The position numbers were made by a program, and so were the translations under genes. Positions 16,618-57,912 of a DNA stretch of 64,000 bases are shown one piece after another; the first letter of the stretch is position 1; each line of letters starts with the position of its first letter. Where the stretch lies: positions 9,756 to 73,755 of the forward strand of contig CAKNRR010000001.1 of assembly GCA_930990975.1 (NCBI GenBank), in the 5' to 3' direction. The notes beneath the pieces were generated by a model. It was given only the letters and a program-made list of their open reading frames with translations. It was not told the origin of the DNA and made no database searches. This DNA is from an uncultured Clostridia bacterium. GTDB lineage: Bacteria > Bacillota > Clostridia > Christensenellales > UBA1242.

Positions 16618-17628
16618 TTAGGCAATTTTGTTTGCAATGCTATTGTCAACAAGTTTTTCAAAAGTCGATGAATATTGAGTTTCTTCAGTAGTTGAATTGA
16701 TAATTTCCATCATCTTATCAAAAGATTCTTCTGTCATTGCAGGGCTAGAACACCAAGCATCAATTGCAATATATTGTTCAACAGCAATTTTGAGCTCTTC
16801 ATTTGTCATACCAGAGAATGAAGGAGCTAAAGCCTCAGCAGCTTTGTCAGAACTTTGCGTTGAGATGTATTGATAACCTCTGTAGACTGCTTTCAAGAAT
16901 TTTTCAGCTTGTTCACCCTTATCTTTAAGGAAACTTTGCTTAGTTGCAAAGCAAGTGTAAGGGACATTGCCAGAGAAATCGCCAACAGCATCTAAGACAT
17001 AACCATTGCCTTCTTTTTGAAGATTGGTTGCAGTTGGTTCAAAGAGAGTGCAGAATTCACAACCGCTTGTCACAAATTCGCTTCCAATCATAGGGAATGA
17101 AACATCTGTTCTAAGATTGACTTGACCACTTGCAGTATCAGTGCCGATAGTCATTCCAGCTTGTTCTATAATATACTGCAAAACCATAGCAGGCATTCCA
17201 CCTTTTCGTCCAGCAATGATGGTTGTTCCCTTAAGCATATCAAGAGAGAAATCTTCTATTTTGTCTCTTGAAACGAAGAATGAGCCATCGCGTTGGGTGA
17301 GTTGTCCGAAGATGACAGGTTGGTCTTTGGTGCCTTCAGCATATACAACAGTTTCAGGACCAACCAAAACAATATCTGCACTACCGCTGAGAAGGGCAGT
17401 CATTGAAGCATCAGAACCTGTCGCACTTTCAATAGTGACTTCCAAGCCTTCATCTTCAAAGAAGCCTAGATTGTAAGCTGCATAAAGTGGGGCATAGAAG
17501 ATACTATGTGTAACCTCATTAAGTCTTATTTTGTTATCATCTTTACCACAGCTTATAAAAATAAAGCTAGATGCGAGGGCGATAACCAAACAAAGGACAT
17601 AGAGGGATATAGATTTGATTTTTTGCAT
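16618..17628 (-). CDS. ABC transporter substrate-binding lipoprotein (NMT1/SsuA/TauA-like)
   Basis: Lipobox FISC. It has FYAPLYAAYNLGFFEDEGLEV, typical of the NMT1/THI5-like SBP fold. No permease or ATPase is adjacent. Confidence 0.7.
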   Translation of the reverse strand: MQKIKSISLYVLCLVIALASSFIFISCGKDDNKIRLNEVTHSIFYAPLYAAYNLGFFEDEGLEVTIESATGSDASMTALLSGSADIVLVGPETVVYAEGTKDQPVIFGQLTQRDGSFFVSRDKIEDFSLDMLKGTTIIAGRKGGMPAMVLQYIIEQAGMTIGTDTASGQVNLRTDVSFPMIGSEFVTSGCEFCTLFEPTATNLQKEGNGYVLDAVGDFSGNVPYTCFATKQSFLKDKGEQAEKFLKAVYRGYQYISTQSSDKAAEALAPSFSGMTNEELKIAVEQYIAIDAWCSSPAMTEESFDKMMEIINSTTEETQYSSTFEKLVDNSIANKIA

Positions 17629-26888: not shown

Positions 26889-26992
26889 GTGCGGAGAAAG
26901 CAAAAAAAGTTTGAAAGAAATTTTCAAACTTTTTTTAACGCAAAATTATGCGTTGCCATAAAGCCAAAAGGCTTTATGGGCTTTCTCCGCAC
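26889..26992 (+). other. candidate structured RNA/DNA element: perfect four-way junction (copy A)
   Basis: P1 is 26889..26901 paired with 26980..26992 (13 bp, gtgcggagaaagc/gctttctccgcac). P2 is 26902..26936 (15 bp, loop gaaat). P3 is 26937..26954 (6 bp). P4 is 26956..26979 (10 bp, loop aaaa). Only one junction nucleotide is unpaired. Confidence 0.55.
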
Positions 26993-27246
26993 CAACAAAC
27001 TAATCTAAACCCCACGCCATCTACGCCAATACCTCAGCCAATATTCAATGCTAAACCCTCACGCCCAAAATCATTCCAAACCACTCCAATAAACAGCACC
27101 AATGAATTCTGCTAGCGACCTGTATTATAAACTTTATATATATAACCCCAGCCATTTATTCCTAAATCTTTCTTTATAAAGAAGGTTTTTATGAAAAGCG
27201 AATTTAAAAACAATTTTCTTAAAATAGTCAAAATTGATAAAAATGC

Positions 27247-30039: not shown

Positions 30040-30701
30040 TAATCGACATACTTACACTCTTCCCTGAAAGTTTTTCATATCTTGACAGTTCTATTCTAAA
30101 AAGAGCAAAGGAAAGCGGAATTTTAGAAATAAATTTGATTGATATAAGACAATTTTCAAAAGATAAACATAAGAAATGTGATGACTACCCATTTGGAGGA
30201 GGGGCTGGAATGCTTATGAGTGTACAGCCTGTTTATGATGCGATAAAAAGTGTAATTAAGGATAATACAACACTTATTATGCCTTCGCCAAGCGGAGAAA
30301 CTTTTGATGTGAACTTGGCAAGTGAACTTGCGCAAAAAGAACACTTGGTTTTCATTTGTGGGCATTATGAGGGAATAGACCAAAGAATAGTAGATATTTT
30401 CAATCCTCTTGAAATTTCAATAGGAGATTATGTGCTGACGGGCGGAGAACTTCCTGCAATGGTCATGGTTGATTGTATATCAAGATTTATAAAAGGTGTG
30501 ATAAGCGAAGAAAGTTTGAAAGAAGAAAGTTTTTCAAGTGACAGACTTGAATATCCTCAATATACAAGACCAGCTGATTTTATGGGATACAAAGTTCCCG
30601 AGGTTTTGCTTTCTGGCAATCATGCCCAAATAGAAAAGTGGCGCAAAGAGATGTCAGAGAAAATTACAAAAGAAAAACGACCAGATTTGCTGAAAAAATA
30701 A
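30036..30701 (+). CDS. trmD: tRNA (guanine37-N1)-methyltransferase
   Basis: Has DILTLFPE, DDYPFGGGAGM, CGHYEGIDQR, and GNHAQIEKWR near the C-terminus. Confidence 0.96.
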   Translation: MIIDILTLFPESFSYLDSSILKRAKESGILEINLIDIRQFSKDKHKKCDDYPFGGGAGMLMSVQPVYDAIKSVIKDNTTLIMPSPSGETFDVNLASELAQKEHLVFICGHYEGIDQRIVDIFNPLEISIGDYVLTGGELPAMVMVDCISRFIKGVISEESLKEESFSSDRLEYPQYTRPADFMGYKVPEVLLSGNHAQIEKWRKEMSEKITKEKRPDLLKK

Positions 30702-30874
30702 AAAAATATTAAAATTTTATATAAATATTAAAAAAATAAAAAATAAATAAAAAAAATAATTTAATTATTAAATTAAAATAATTATTTAATAAAAAAATAA
30801 AACAATAAAAAATATTAAATAAATTAATAAATAATTTTATTTATTTTTTTAATTAATTTTTTAAATAATAAATA
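30702..30874. other. 173-bp tract that is essentially pure A/T
   Basis: Between the trmD stop and the rbgA RBS I find a single non-A/T base (C at about 30803). It occupies the slot where rplS normally sits. Confidence 0.9.
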
Positions 30875-30890
30875 GGAAAAGGAGGGTATT

Positions 30891-36960: not shown

Positions 36961-37379
36961 AAAATCAAAACCTCCTTAATTTTAATTCGAAGCTTGCCAA
37001 GCTTATTCAGCTATTTGTGTTGTTGTCTTTTTGTGTGTTTCTTATATTGTGTTGAAAAGATTGAATACAAGTTTAAATAAGCCCAGCGCTCTCTTAGTAT
37101 AATACGCAAAATATACCAAATTATGCCAAATTTCGACAAGCGTATAATATTGCATAAAAATGTATAAATATACATCACAATGTATGATTATGCAAAAAGT
37201 CAGAGGCGAATATGTGGATATTAATTATATAAGTTTGAGTTTGATTTTGTTTTAAAGTTAACTATGCAAACTAATTGTATTGATTGAGAAAATGGGGAAT
37301 TATTAATGTGAAATTTTTATTGTTAAAATGAGGATTTTATGTTATAATAATAAAGGAAAAATTGTTTATAGGAGCTTTT

Positions 37380-39332
37380 ATGAGTGAAAAAAAATACAAT
37401 GCTGAAGATATAGTCGTTCTTGAAGGTTTGGATGCGGTAAGATTGCGTCCTGGAATGTATATAGGAACGACTGGCTCAAAAGGTATGCACCACTTATTGT
37501 GGGAAATAGTTGATAATGCTATTGATGAAATATCAAATGGTTATGGCGACACAATAAAGATTACTTTAAATACTGACAATTCTGTGACGGTTGAAGATAA
37601 TGGAAGAGGTATTCCAGTTGATGAACATCCAACTCTTCATAAATCTGGCGTAGAGGTTGTTTATACAACTTTGCATGCTGGTGGTAAGTTTAATACAGAC
37701 AACTACAAATTCTCTGGTGGGCTGCATGGGGTTGGTGCGTCAGTTACTAATGCTTTATCAAAATGGTGTAATGTTACTGTTTATAAAGGCGGAAAAGAAT
37801 ATTATATAGGTTTTCATTCTTTCACCGATGAAGATGGAAAGGTGCACAGCGGAATACCAGTTGAGCCTCTGAAGTTTGTCGGCAAGACTGACAAAACAGG
37901 GACAAAAGTTACCTTCTTGCCTGATAGCGATATGTTCGGCAATATCAAATTTAATTTTGAAACAATTTGTAATAGGGCAAGAGAGCTTGCATTCTTGAAT
38001 AAAGGTTTGAAGATAGAACTTGTTGACCTTAATACTGATAGAGATGAAAAATATCACTATGAGGGTGGAATATCAGACTTTGTAGAATATTTGGTTGAAG
38101 GAAAAAATAAGATGTTCAGCAAACCAATATATTTTGAAGGAGAGGACAAAAATTTCAATTTGGAGGTTGCTTTTATTTATACAGACAGCTATACAGAGAA
38201 TTCCTTTTCTTTTGTAAATAATATTCCGACTATTGAAGGCGGAACTCATGAAACAGGTTTCCGTACAGCCTTCACAAAGGTCATGAATGAATATGCCAGA
38301 AACAACAATCTTTTGAAAGAAAAAGAGCAAAATTTGTTAGGCGAAGACTTTAGAGAGGGTATTACTGTTGTTCTCAATGTCAAAATGAACAATGTTCAAT
38401 TTGAAGGACAGACCAAGACAAAACTTGGAAATCCAGAGGCAAAGACTCTTGTTGAAAATTTGACAATCAAATGCCTGTCTTTGCTAATGAAAGATAAAAA
38501 GAATTCAACTGCTGCAGAAATCATTGTCAATAAAGCTAAGGGGGCAGCAAAAGTTCGTGAAGCTGCCAAAAAGGCAAAGGAACTCACAAGAGCTAAAAAC
38601 TCTGCTGAAAATTTCAACTTGGTTGGGAAATTGGCTGCAGCTACATCAAAAAACAGAGAAAACGCAGAATTATTTATTGTTGAGGGAGATTCTGCGGGTG
38701 GTTCTGCAAAACAAGGAAGAGATAGAAAATTTCAAGCTATACTTCCACTTAGAGGAAAACCATTAAATGCTGAGAAAAAACGCATTGACCAGGTTTTAGC
38801 AAATGAAGAGATAAGAACAATAATTTCTGCTTTAAATACAGGCATTGGGGAAGACTTTGATTTATCAAGTTTGAGATATAACAAGGTTATAATCTTAAGC
38901 GATGCTGACCAAGATGGAGCACATATCAGAGCGATTCTTTTGACATTTTTCTTTAGATATATGCGTGAACTTATCAATGACGGACATGTATTTATAGGGC
39001 TTCCTCCACTTTATAAAGTTTATAAGAAAGATTATACTGAATATGTTTATTCTGATTATGAATTGCCAGATGCAATAAATAGAGCAGGAAGGAATTATAG
39101 TCTTCAGCGCTATAAAGGTCTTGGAGAAATGAATCCTGAACAACTTTGGAAAACTACAATGGACCCTGAAAAAAGGAATTTGATTCAAGTGACAATTGAA
39201 GATGCTGCTGAAGCTGAAAAGATGGTCAGCACATTGATGGGCGATGATATTGAAGCTAGAAAGAAATATATCAATGAACATGCAAATTTTGATAGAGAAG
39301 ATGAATTCTTGAAAAATTACAAAAAAATATAA
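37380..39332 (+). CDS. parE: type IIA topoisomerase subunit B, probably topoisomerase IV ParE (a GyrB paralogue)
   Basis: GHKL ATPase (LEGLDAVRLRPGMYIG, GLHGVGASV), Toprim EGDSAGGS and PLRGKPLN. The subunit assignment follows its partner gene. Confidence 0.7.
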   Translation: MSEKKYNAEDIVVLEGLDAVRLRPGMYIGTTGSKGMHHLLWEIVDNAIDEISNGYGDTIKITLNTDNSVTVEDNGRGIPVDEHPTLHKSGVEVVYTTLHAGGKFNTDNYKFSGGLHGVGASVTNALSKWCNVTVYKGGKEYYIGFHSFTDEDGKVHSGIPVEPLKFVGKTDKTGTKVTFLPDSDMFGNIKFNFETICNRARELAFLNKGLKIELVDLNTDRDEKYHYEGGISDFVEYLVEGKNKMFSKPIYFEGEDKNFNLEVAFIYTDSYTENSFSFVNNIPTIEGGTHETGFRTAFTKVMNEYARNNNLLKEKEQNLLGEDFREGITVVLNVKMNNVQFEGQTKTKLGNPEAKTLVENLTIKCLSLLMKDKKNSTAAEIIVNKAKGAAKVREAAKKAKELTRAKNSAENFNLVGKLAAATSKNRENAELFIVEGDSAGGSAKQGRDRKFQAILPLRGKPLNAEKKRIDQVLANEEIRTIISALNTGIGEDFDLSSLRYNKVIILSDADQDGAHIRAILLTFFFRYMRELINDGHVFIGLPPLYKVYKKDYTEYVYSDYELPDAINRAGRNYSLQRYKGLGEMNPEQLWKTTMDPEKRNLIQVTIEDAAEAEKMVSTLMGDDIEARKKYINEHANFDREDEFLKNYKKI

Positions 39333-39430
39333 AAATAATTATCAGAAAGCAGTTTATTTATAAAAATATTTTTATGGATAAGAAAAACTACTTACAAGAG
39401 TGCTAATGTTTTTATAAAGATGAATTGAAG

Positions 39431-39509
39431 GCCGAGAAGCAAATTTTGCATGCAAAATTTAAAAATGCTTACGCATTTTGCACAAACGAAAGTTTGTGCG
39501 CTTCTCGGC
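39431..39509 (+). other. candidate structured RNA/DNA element: four-way junction (copy B)
   Basis: P1 is 39431..39440 paired with 39500..39509 (gccgagaagc/gcttctcggc). P2 is 39441..39460 (20-nt palindrome). P3 is 39462..39479 (7 bp, loop ttac). P4 is 39480..39499 (8 bp, GAAA loop). One junction nucleotide is unpaired. Confidence 0.55.
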
Positions 39510-39587
39510 AGTTGACCCGCACCCGCCGACTTAAAGGCAAGGCATATTACCCGCAAAAAGCTAAATAAAACAACGATAGGAGAGTTT

Positions 39588-42071
39588 ATGAAAGACTTTG
39601 AACAAGAGAAAATGGACTATGGCAATGAAGAAAATGAAGAAGAAATGATTGAAGAGAGTGCATCAGATTCATCAGGCAATGGCAATGATAAAGGCATCAT
39701 TTACAAAAGCATGAGTGAAGTGTTGCACGATTCAATGATTCCATATACAGAATGTGTTGTTATGGATAGAGCTTTGCCAAGAGTTGAAGATGGATTAAAG
39801 CCAGTTCAAAGAAGAATACTTTATTCTATGCTAGAGCTTGGTGTAACACCTGATAAACCATATAGAAAATCTGCAAGAATTGTAGGTGATTGCCTTGGTA
39901 AATATCATCCACATGGCGATAGCTCTGTTTATGATGCAATGTGTCGTATGGCACAAGATTGGGTTCTTCGAGCACCTTTAATTGACGGACATGGAAATTT
40001 TGGTTCTATTGATGGCGATAGCCCAGCTGCTATGCGTTACACTGAAACAAGAATGACACCTCTTGCAATGGAACTTATGAGAGATCTTGAAAAAGACACT
40101 GTAAGATGGAGCCTTAACTTCGATGATTCATTGAAAGAACCTGATATGTTCCCAGGAAGATTTCCAAATCTTCTTATAAATGGTGCGACAGGTATTGCTG
40201 TTGGTGTTGCAACAAATATTCCTCCTCATAATTTAGGCGAAACAATAGATGGTGTTGTTGCATATATAAACAACCCAAATATAAAAATTGATCAACTCAT
40301 TAAAATTATAAAAGGACCTGACTTTCCTTCAGGTGGCGAAATTATTGATGAAGACGGTGGACTTGAACAGGCATATAAAACAGGGAAAGGAAAGATTTTA
40401 ATAAGAGCCAAGGTTTCAGTTGAAAGAAGCGGTGATAAGAGCAGCTTGATTATCACAGAACTTCCTTATCAAGTAAATAAGGCTCAACTTTTGCAAAAAA
40501 TTGCAGAACTTAAAGAGCAAAATAAAGACAAACTCGCATCCATAACAGAAATTAGAGATGAATCTGATAGAAATGGAATGCGTGGTGTTATAAAATTGAA
40601 AAAGGATGCAGACCCTAAGAAGATACTTGAATACCTCTATAAAGCAACCAACTTGCAAATTTCATATGGAATCAATATGGTCGCAATTGCAGGTGGAAAA
40701 CCAAGACTTATGAATCTTCTTGAAATCATATCTTATTATGCAAATTATCAAAGAGAGATTATTGTAAGAAGAACCAAATACGATTTGAATGTTGCTCGTG
40801 AAAGAGCTCATATTGTAGAAGGCTTGCTTATCGCGATAAAAAATATTGATGAAGTTATCAAAATAATCAAAAAATCAGCTTCAGTAGGGGAAGCAAAGCA
40901 AAAATTAAGAGAAAAATTTAATTTATCAGAGAAACAGGCTCAGGCTATACTTGATATGCGACTTGCAAGACTTGTTCACTTGGAAGTCACAAAACTTCAA
41001 GAAGAGCTTGCTGCTCTTAAGCAAAAGATAGCAGAATATGAAGCTATACTTGCTTCAAAGAAATTGCAATATGATGTTGTAAAGAAAGAAATTCTTGAAA
41101 TTAAGAAAAACTACAACACTCCAAGACGCTCTGCCTTAGGCAATGATTCAACTGTGGTTATAGAAGAAACTAAAGACGAAGACGAGAGCGGTGGGAAAAA
41201 TTATATTGTTGCAATAACTGCTGGCAATACTATTAAAAAGGTGACATCTAAAAATTATTCAATGTCACAAAAATCGCTCACAGATAATTCAACAATCAAT
41301 GATATTCCTGTTCAAATTGAAAGCTTTACAGGTGGCGAAACAATTTTGATATTGACAAGCCAAGGCAATGCCATCAAGACAAAAGTTCAAGATTTGAAAG
41401 AATGCAAGTGGAGAGATAAAGGAGCATCCCTTCTTTCAATAGATAAAAATATTGTGTTGAACGAAGTTCCTGTCAAAATTATGAAAATGCCACAAGAAGG
41501 TTCAGTTCTCTTTATGACAAAATATGGAATGGTTAAAAAGAGCGATGTTAAAGACCTTAATGTAAATAAGAATTTCTATCAAGTTTGCAAGGTTAATGAT
41601 GGTGATGAAATCAAGAATATTGAAATTGATAAAAATGGCACAAGCATTTTGATGTTGACAAGAAAGGGTATGTCACTTAATTTTGATAAAGCTGATATTC
41701 CAACTCAGGGTCGTATTTCAGCTGGAGTAAAGGGCATAAATCTTGATGACGATGATAGTGTAATATTTGCAAAACAAGTTGATTTCCCTTATGTTGTGGT
41801 TGTGACGGATAATGGATTTATTAAAAAATTATCCACAACACAATTCCCATTATCACAAAGATATAGAAAGGGACTTAGATATATTAATTTCGCTAAGAAT
41901 TGTAAAAATGTATTCTTTGCCTGTGATGTTGAAGGAAATGCAACTTTAGCAGTAGATTTTGGCTTAAAGATTCTTCCAATGGATACAAAGAAAATTCCAG
42001 AGAGTGAACGCTTAACAACAGGGAACGAAATTATCAAAAAGAATTTCTTTACAATAAGCAAGATGGTTTAA
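39588..42071 (+). CDS. parC: type IIA topoisomerase subunit A, ParC-like
   Basis: Active-site AAMRYTE. It has [11 protein letters not shown] (Gln as in ParC/GrlA, where GyrA normally has His). I find no GyrA box (QRRGGKG) in the C-terminal domain. It carries a ~40-aa acidic N-terminal extension. Confidence 0.7.
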
Positions 42072-57582: not shown

Positions 57583-57912
57583 AGCAAAGATATTTTAGCA
57601 AAGTTTTCAACAAAAATCAACAAATGTAAAAACAAAAATTATAAATAATAAAATCAAAAATAAAAAATAATTAAATAAATTCGACAAAAAAATAAAAAAT
57701 AAAATTAAAATTATTATTTAAAAATAAATTAATTATATTTTATTATTTTTTTAATTATTATTTTCAATTATTTTTAACTTTTTTATTAAAAAAATATTTT
57801 TTATTATTTTAATATTATTTTGATGTTTTTTAATGTTATTTTATTTGGTTTAAACAAAATTGATGAAACAACATATCTTGTAATAGGGTTGTGTAAGAAA
57901 AAAGGGGAGATT

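Follow-up and report, generated by a model that had tools for sequence, protein, structure and literature searches.

In the spacer between the two topoisomerase IV genes of an uncultured gut Clostridia bacterium we found a perfectly paired four-way junction, copy B, that belongs to a family of intergenic elements united by shape, and that lies within an RNA recovered from a small-RNA library of the chicken gut. The reading we favour, to which we assign a probability of roughly 45 %, is that these elements are structured repeats of the REP or MITE kind and that copy B would form a very stable block in RNA, giving rise to a stable spacer RNA. The window analysed here (the whole stretch of 64,000 nt, to which coordinates refer unless a contig or locus is named) is part of a genome of 1.41 Mb with 31 % G+C in 18 contigs. 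Its host is known mainly from chicken-gut metagenomes, and belongs to a genus with at least 154 species representatives and genomes of 0.6–1.5 Mb.

Copy B can be read straight from the sequence as 79 bases (39431-39509) with four arms, in which three perfect hairpins are enclosed by one closing stem. This stem, P1, pairs GCCGAGAAGC (39431-39440) with GCTTCTCGGC (39500-39509) over 10 bp, and encloses hairpin P2 (AAATTTTGCA/TGCAAAATTT, 39441-39460), a single unpaired A at position 39461, hairpin P3 (AAAATGC-TTAC-GCATTTT, 39462-39479) and hairpin P4 (GCACAAAC-GAAA-GTTTGTGC, 39480-39499). All 33 pairs are Watson–Crick, with no wobble and no mismatch. Using RNAfold, we obtained exactly this four-way junction at -41.7 kcal/mol (z = -6.3), a value equalled by none of 200 shuffles, and the same fold for the opposite strand at -42.8 kcal/mol (z = -5.1). 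The fold drawn in the original prediction was thus matched exactly, including the 10-bp closing stem, the three perfect hairpins and the one unpaired junction base, and the C-rich run that it had placed 3' of the element is present as gacccgcacccgccgac at 39514-39530. Copy B had also been described as a second copy of an architecture seen elsewhere in the window, and this was borne out: copy A (26889..26992) has a related closing stem, GTGCGGAGAAAGC, and lies between a surface-protein gene and ylxM-ffh, with a 137-nt C-rich, G-poor tail after it. By the ORF list, the spacer that houses copy B measures 255 nt, between the stop of parE at 39332 and the start of parC at 39588. The upstream neighbour, parE (topoisomerase IV subunit B; 37362..39332, + strand), takes its name from an earlier label and a match to a gyrB-like paralogue, and 46 orthologous loci were fetched with the downstream neighbour, parC (topoisomerase IV subunit A; 39588..42071, + strand). 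The sequence of copy B was found unchanged in contigs of four other chicken-gut metagenome runs, and the element is therefore not an assembly artefact.

Throughout the 1.41-Mb genome we identified at least 12 closed three-hairpin elements, compared with none in a block-shuffled genome. Nine of these are strict elements from a descriptor scan that required three perfect, abutting hairpins within a closing stem of ≥ 6 bp, and the remaining three were picked up by a second scan alone. Closed clusters of two or four hairpins were confined, in the genome scan, to A+T-only low-complexity sequence; long tracts of such sequence, with many imperfect inverted repeats, occupy positions 30700-30880 and 57600-57830 of the window. 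Across the 12 copies the closing stems follow a loose consensus, being of either the GCGAGAAAGC type or the TGTGATG type, and the hairpin sequences are unrelated from copy to copy with their pairing retained. A covariance model built from copy B alone recognized all 12 copies, on both strands, when their loci were supplied, and copy B in turn fits the family model derived from the 12 copies of the genome. The copies could not be aligned by MAFFT, even when trimmed to equal length, and the alignment was instead obtained by fitting them to this single-sequence model. In the resulting alignment 97.1 % of 727 cells pair, against 50 % when shuffled and 37-50 % with slid partners, double changes occur at 33 of 33 pairs and wobbles (G·U) make up ∼2 % of cells; as the copies were fitted to the structure these pairing figures lean that way, but the gap is still very large. 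When models (R1 and R2) were used for whole-genome searches, the prefilter scored only 38-150 of ∼5000 candidates, and the covariance-model search recovered 4 of the 12 own-genome copies and none among 120 other genomes of the bacterial family. The descriptor scan and closing-stem patterns were used in its place. At gathering score, Rfam returned only two tRNAs for the whole window, and for 39300-39620 it gave nothing at an E-value of 10 or less, the sister loci likewise being without a match. A literature search found no description of such elements, and the repeat family is apparently undescribed.

All 12 copies are intergenic and none is found in a divergent spacer; their neighbours are core genes, and several of the sites are internal to operons. 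With genes recognized by eye from translations and relatives, copies were located between the cistrons parE and parC, ybaB and recR, nrdD and nrdG, and pgk and tpiA, and after gyrA, feoB, parC and groEL. A specificity of copy B for parE-parC is not supported, given the occurrence of the same architecture by gyrA, groEL, nrdD|nrdG, pgk|tpiA, ybaB|recR and feoB. By our own reading of the copies, three loose hairpin types can be told apart, namely A/T (AAAATTTTT...), middle ((G)AAAAC) and GC-richer, and their order relative to gene direction is mixed, at ∼6 to 5. In one subfamily, defined by the closing stem ACTATGTGATG, the copies at three loci of this genome and in another species are nearly identical, a degree of sequence identity that points to duplication or mobility. 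The closest paralogue of copy B, at C5:49970, shares both its closing stem and its first hairpin (60 bits with the single-sequence model). Additionally, a solitary hairpin, GCAAATTTTGCTTGCAAAATTT, almost identical to P2 of copy B and with no junction around it, occurs at C18:1487-1513 and also at G009:C27:1160-1186, which points to the sharing or movement of individual hairpin modules.

The family was found in this one genus of uncultured gut Clostridia with small, low-GC genomes; it is distributed patchily among the species, with its copies concentrated behind core genes or in the spacers between them. A search of 151 genus genomes with the pattern GAGAAAGC-N50-90-GCTTTCTC gave eight sites in six genomes, all eight of which were true three-hairpin junctions; a control pattern matched once. 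The same closing-stem pattern, applied to metagenome and viral collections as a negative control, gave 240 chance matches and no junction. The descriptor scan detected no element in the 260 kb covered of the closest congener, the 140 kb of a second one or the 313 kb drawn from three further genera of the bacterial family. For the 30 nearest species, loci 3' of gyrA contained six junctions in 103 kb, and loci 3' of groEL, taken as a control, contained four in 100 kb. The parE|parC spacers of 46 related species range from 17 to 350 nt and none of them contains copy B, although in two closely related species (L013 and L014) this spacer holds a different junction, of 120 nt and with a 31-bp closing stem. 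Among the 154 genus genomes, the closing-stem type of copy B was found in copy B itself and in an element after nifS-nifU in two other species; no orthologue of copy B was found in the 153 other genomes. With copy B absent from 46 spacers, and its stem type present in only 2 of 153 genomes, the element is not a conserved parE-parC regulator, and a dedicated, conserved signal for this gene pair was not supported by comparison of the spacer with that of relatives (copy B in 0 of 46). On the sequence comparison, copy B is a species-specific copy, and probably, as the simplest explanation, a duplicate of its sister copy.

Certain copies have been retained at one site in several species, and others, such as copy B, are species-specific. 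Three species make up the nrdD|nrdG series, in which stems are invariant and loops free; one base pair is changed on both sides, one C-G pair has become U·G on the sense strand, and one of the spacer flanks is not alignable. The series found after gyrA, in 5 of 30 species with our own-genome copy at C3:72991 included, retains its closing stem, GGGCTGTGAAG, and, in the middle, the CAAAAC hairpin, and the GC-richer hairpin is replaced outright. In one of its members (L396, from G010) the interior is reverse-complemented relative to L391, L403, L397 and L411 with the closing-stem arms unchanged, which is a flip/flop-like inversion between these arms. Three of the five post-gyrA copies have a GC-rich closing stem followed directly by T5-6 and, from their sequence, look like branched intrinsic terminators.

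Evidence for RNA from the spacer comes from run X25, a single size-fractionated chicken-gut small-RNA library, in which 39320-39552 is covered at 100 % identity. This coverage consists of three contigs, each at 100 % identity, spanning 39320-39444 (depth 8.5), 39415-39449 (depth 14.6) and 39420-39552 (depth 6.8). Between 22001 and 42000 there was no other coverage, the coding regions of parE and parC being uncovered, and between 1 and 20000 only the gene of a substrate-binding lipoprotein (16618-17628, - strand) was covered, at 16928-17126 and 17487-17590, which fits very high expression of this gene. Short patches in X25 were seen for the substrate-binding lipoprotein (depth 7.7), for GroEL (depth 3.2) and for a large uncharacterized ORF of 899 aa (depth 17.9) that, from its similarity to the one after feoB, is probably a surface protein; genes with such patches are typically among the most expressed. 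At a depth of 7-15, the spacer RNA is equal to or above the GroEL and lipoprotein mRNA fragments, and in this one library, which provides assembled contigs without strand information, the junction-containing RNA greatly exceeds the parE and parC messages in abundance. Copy A, the copies at C1:184017 and C5:49970, and the post-gyrA copy were uncovered in X25. As only copy B was seen out of five tested copies, the abundance belongs to this locus and not to the family.

The coverage in X25 reaches 110 nt upstream of the junction, an extension that is not predicted by a simple exonuclease stop. On the + strand, from which we infer the RNA to be read, a consensus scan found a promoter-like site inside the end of parE (TTGATA-17 nt-AAAAAT, with TG just upstream; 39289..39317), which is a weak match in an AT-rich region. 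If active, this site would start transcription near 39324, and may thus be linked to the beginning of the RNA at 39320. No terminator was detected at the 3' end of copy B in the consensus scan. Copy B had been suggested to act as a processing, attenuation or differential-stability signal; of these, a role in processing or stability is plausible, given an abundant spacer RNA with the coding regions unseen. The attenuation part was not supported: there is no U-tract after copy B, and no match to Rho (PF07497) in the 97 %-complete genome, with control genomes positive, so that neither classical kind of attenuation is available at this site.

The tail that follows copy B (39510..39555, + strand) is C-rich and carries two boxes, CCCGCACCCGCC (39516-39527) and CCCGCA (39550-39555), with 34 nt from the start of one to the start of the next. 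There are only 10 CCCGCAC sites in the whole genome, and most family members are without such boxes. The nrdD|nrdG elements of three species have the same box pair, 35 nt apart and on the same side of the junction interior; at these loci the flank with the boxes is conserved, unlike the opposite one, and the C-rich strand is antisense to the operon. A conserved block of ∼85 nt beside the nrdD|nrdG junction (L318:1410-1495, L321:1410-1495 and L381:1430-1514) contains two GTGCGGG(T) boxes 35 nt apart together with an AAACCGC motif. The tail of copy A (26993-27130) comprises 137 nt with ∼38 % C and 5 % G, in a genome of 31 % G+C, and its boxes, CCCCACGCC and CCCTCACGCCC, are related to those of copy B. 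The complement of the box, GTGCGGG, occurs eight times in the genome, mostly inside genes, and none was seen at a ribosome-binding site. As the genome has no Rho, the C-rich tails are not Rho loading sites.

REP elements stabilize upstream mRNA and attenuate transcription, and in enterobacterial operons they protect RNA and create stable fragments. Like the REP, BIME and REPIN sequences of Proteobacteria, which are associated with RAYT Y1 transposases, the elements described here are short extragenic palindromic repeats after or between operon genes (12 of 12 copies have the extragenic location typical of REP), fold on either strand and have a patchy, lineage-specific distribution. They differ in that a closed four-way junction of three perfect hairpins takes the place of a single imperfect hairpin or doublet, in that there are ∼12 copies per genome rather than hundreds (typically over 100), and in that an architecture with a loose closing-stem consensus is shared, rather than a conserved sequence with a GTAG/CGTC head, which is lacking here. 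A RAYT or IS200 enzyme was considered as mobilizer and rejected, PF01797 finding only a truncated, 104-aa remnant of an IS200-type TnpA (C5:817-1131); the hairpin that flanks this remnant, AACCCCCAGACTATCTGGGGGTT, repeated at C5:356 and, shortened, at C5:820, is unrelated to the junctions. No mobilizing enzyme was found for the family. Pneumococcal BOX, RUP and SPRITE, small interspersed repeats of Firmicutes, and bacterial MITEs are likewise small, non-coding, intergenic and structured, and are co-transcribed with their neighbours; moreover, the closing stem of our elements resembles terminal inverted repeats, and the ACTATGTGATG subfamily is near-identical at several loci. In contrast to MITEs, however, the copies showed no flanking direct repeats indicative of target-site duplication and no parent insertion sequence was seen, the only transposase found being the IS200 remnant. 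Furthermore, most copies are unrelated in sequence, and orthologues persist across species with rewritten interiors.

Hairpin-cluster terminators are a kind of intrinsic (Rho-independent) terminator (PMC8355165). Intrinsic terminators resemble our elements in that structure is conserved without sequence and in lying after genes, and the post-gyrA series has the T5-6 expected of them; copy B and most other copies, however, are without a U-tract (the bases next to copy B read AGTTGACCCGCA after it on the + strand and CTTCAATTCATC after it on the - strand), copy B is inside an operon spacer, and a branched three-hairpin top is outside the definition of a terminator. A viral parallel may be drawn with the T-shaped repeats of adeno-associated virus, in that small palindromes are nested within a longer closing palindrome and the interior occurs in both orientations while the outer stem stays as it is. 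The inverted terminal repeats of this virus are three-way, terminal structures tied to rolling-hairpin replication, with flip/flop hairpins, whereas the elements here are internal, chromosomal and four-way, and there is no Rep-like gene.

On the reading we favour, copy B, once transcribed, would fold as RNA into an extremely stable four-helix knot composed of short helices only. Such a junction may act as an orientation-independent barrier to ribonucleases that shields the flanking RNA, which would leave an abundant spacer RNA of ∼230 nt and so let the parE and parC portions of the transcript meet separate fates; another possibility is that copy B sits in a separately promoted, long parC leader. 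The use of four short helices instead of one long duplex could avoid both the instability of long palindromes in DNA and cleavage of the RNA by RNase III-type enzymes, and some of the copies that carry a U-tract would serve as terminators too. Complementarity of the arms is probably maintained through selection, strand-switch copying or a combination of the two. Copy B is not a ligand-sensing, a Rho-dependent or a topoisomerase-specific control element.

The scarcity of wobbles, the equal folding of the two strands and the in-place inversion suggest that upkeep at the level of DNA, through strand-switch correction or recombination of one arm with the other, fits better than selection at the level of RNA, and owing to these signs a purely selfish DNA reading stays a strong rival. 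The elements would then be selfish or neutral nested palindromes, propagated, and their arms kept complementary, by strand-switch (templated) copying or by a junction-recognizing enzyme and with no role as RNA, and the spacer RNA would derive from an unrelated promoter within the AT-rich spacer. Besides the same fold on both strands, a wobble content of ∼2 % and one orthologue with its interior inverted in place, this would account for the wholesale swap of one hairpin between orthologues that keep their closing stem, for the patchiness (no element in 400 kb from two congeners or in 313 kb from other genera), for the near-identical ACTATGTGATG subfamily at three own loci and in another species, and for the fact that four of five tested copies are not abundant as RNA. 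We nevertheless regard it as less likely than the favoured reading: the same intercistronic sites in core operons are occupied across species by elements with invariant stems, and with loops and spacer randomized, which looks like purifying selection, and there is no intact transposase of the expected kind, only the truncated IS200 TnpA with its unrelated hairpins. Target-site duplications were not seen either, and 0 of 12 copies are in divergent spacers. The spacer might also contain the gene of a trans-acting or protein-binding small RNA, in which the junction would serve as scaffold and the CCCGCAC boxes as seed or protein-binding site. Such a gene would explain an RNA of ∼233 nt that is as abundant as the fragments of top mRNAs with its neighbour genes silent in X25, and the promoter-like site fits the start of the RNA; in addition, the box CCCGCACCC and a second box 34-35 nt away are common to copy B and to nrdD|nrdG in three other species. 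Firmicutes small RNAs with C-rich seeds, of the RsaE/RoxS type, are independent transcripts with a promoter and a terminator whose C-rich loops pair with ribosome-binding sites; by comparison, copy B has an abundant RNA and a weak promoter-like site, but no terminator, no complementary site seen at a ribosome-binding site and no Rfam match. Against a small-RNA gene, no terminator lies at the 3' end, most family members are without the boxes, the eight GTGCGGG sites of the genome are mostly intragenic, the C-rich strand at nrdD|nrdG is antisense to its operon, and other species have no orthologue of copy B, and we hold this reading to be distinctly improbable. Equally doubtful is the further idea that the junction and its CCCGCAC tail are the gene of a new class of abundant small RNA in uncultured gut Clostridia, in which a hyper-stable scaffold of four helices would present single-stranded C-rich boxes to a partner, either protein or RNA, and closed four-way-junction repeat families would be recognized by dedicated machinery rather than being inert palindromes.

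Two further readings tie copy B to its neighbouring genes. That of the original prediction, a cis-regulatory attenuator or processing site evolved to balance the expression of parE and parC, draws on the position between two co-oriented subunit genes, on the independent and different junction that two other species have in this spacer, and on the abundance of the spacer RNA. It appears largely refuted by the comparative data, and we consider it very unlikely, since 44 of 46 related species have a spacer without any junction, with spacers down to 17 nt, and the same architecture is found at many unrelated loci. In addition to the lack of both U-tract and Rho, neither loops nor junction offer conserved unpaired bases able to bind a ligand or a factor. 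The other reading, in which a cruciform in the DNA would sense supercoiling or bind topoisomerase and would be tied to type II topoisomerase genes, began from 2 of the 12 own copies touching such genes (parE|parC and post-gyrA), with more found after gyrA and parC in relatives. This link seemed significant within the genome itself, but was ruled out by the groEL-3' control, where junctions have the same density (4 in the 100 kb scanned, and 6 in 103 kb for gyrA); with most copies beside unrelated genes, a topoisomerase-linked cruciform has next to no likelihood.

If this picture of the family holds, the REP/MITE concept is widened to a more elaborate design, a perfectly paired four-way junction in which shape and not sequence is inherited, and which sits inside core operons of bacteria with tiny genomes and no Rho. 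The family would then bear on the ways in which streamlined gut Clostridia set their transcript ends and operon stoichiometry, on how nested palindromes stay complementary whilst being rewritten, and on whether some enzyme recognizes junction-shaped nucleic acid. For annotation, the lesson is that single copies should not be read as riboswitches or attenuators of their own locus. Of all copies, the one between parE and parC offers the best point of entry: public RNA data place it in an abundant small RNA, which opens the question to experiment.

Several smaller observations concern the C-rich tails and their boxes. Two tRNA-Leu genes have CCCGCACC as their 3' end, which was taken as coincidence, no supporting structure having been found, and a G-quadruplex on the G-rich strand of the tail was dismissed, as by eye the G-runs are not conserved among the nrdD|nrdG orthologues. 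A genome-wide window scan for C-rich, G-poor sequence was too unspecific, returning 1803 regions that were mostly the antisense strand of genes. The genus-wide pattern TTCTC..CCCGCAC was, on a rough reading, about as frequent as its control and mostly chance, with a recurrent conserved match that proved to be coding sequence; the same search yielded the third nrdD|nrdG orthologue. Lastly, at a locus 3' of gyrA (L395:84-215, from G186), two direct repeats of GTAAGGCTTTGGTGTGAGTGAGGCT adjoin a junction of the ACTATGTGATG type, and these form a further G-rich box pair (C-rich on the other strand) beside a family member.
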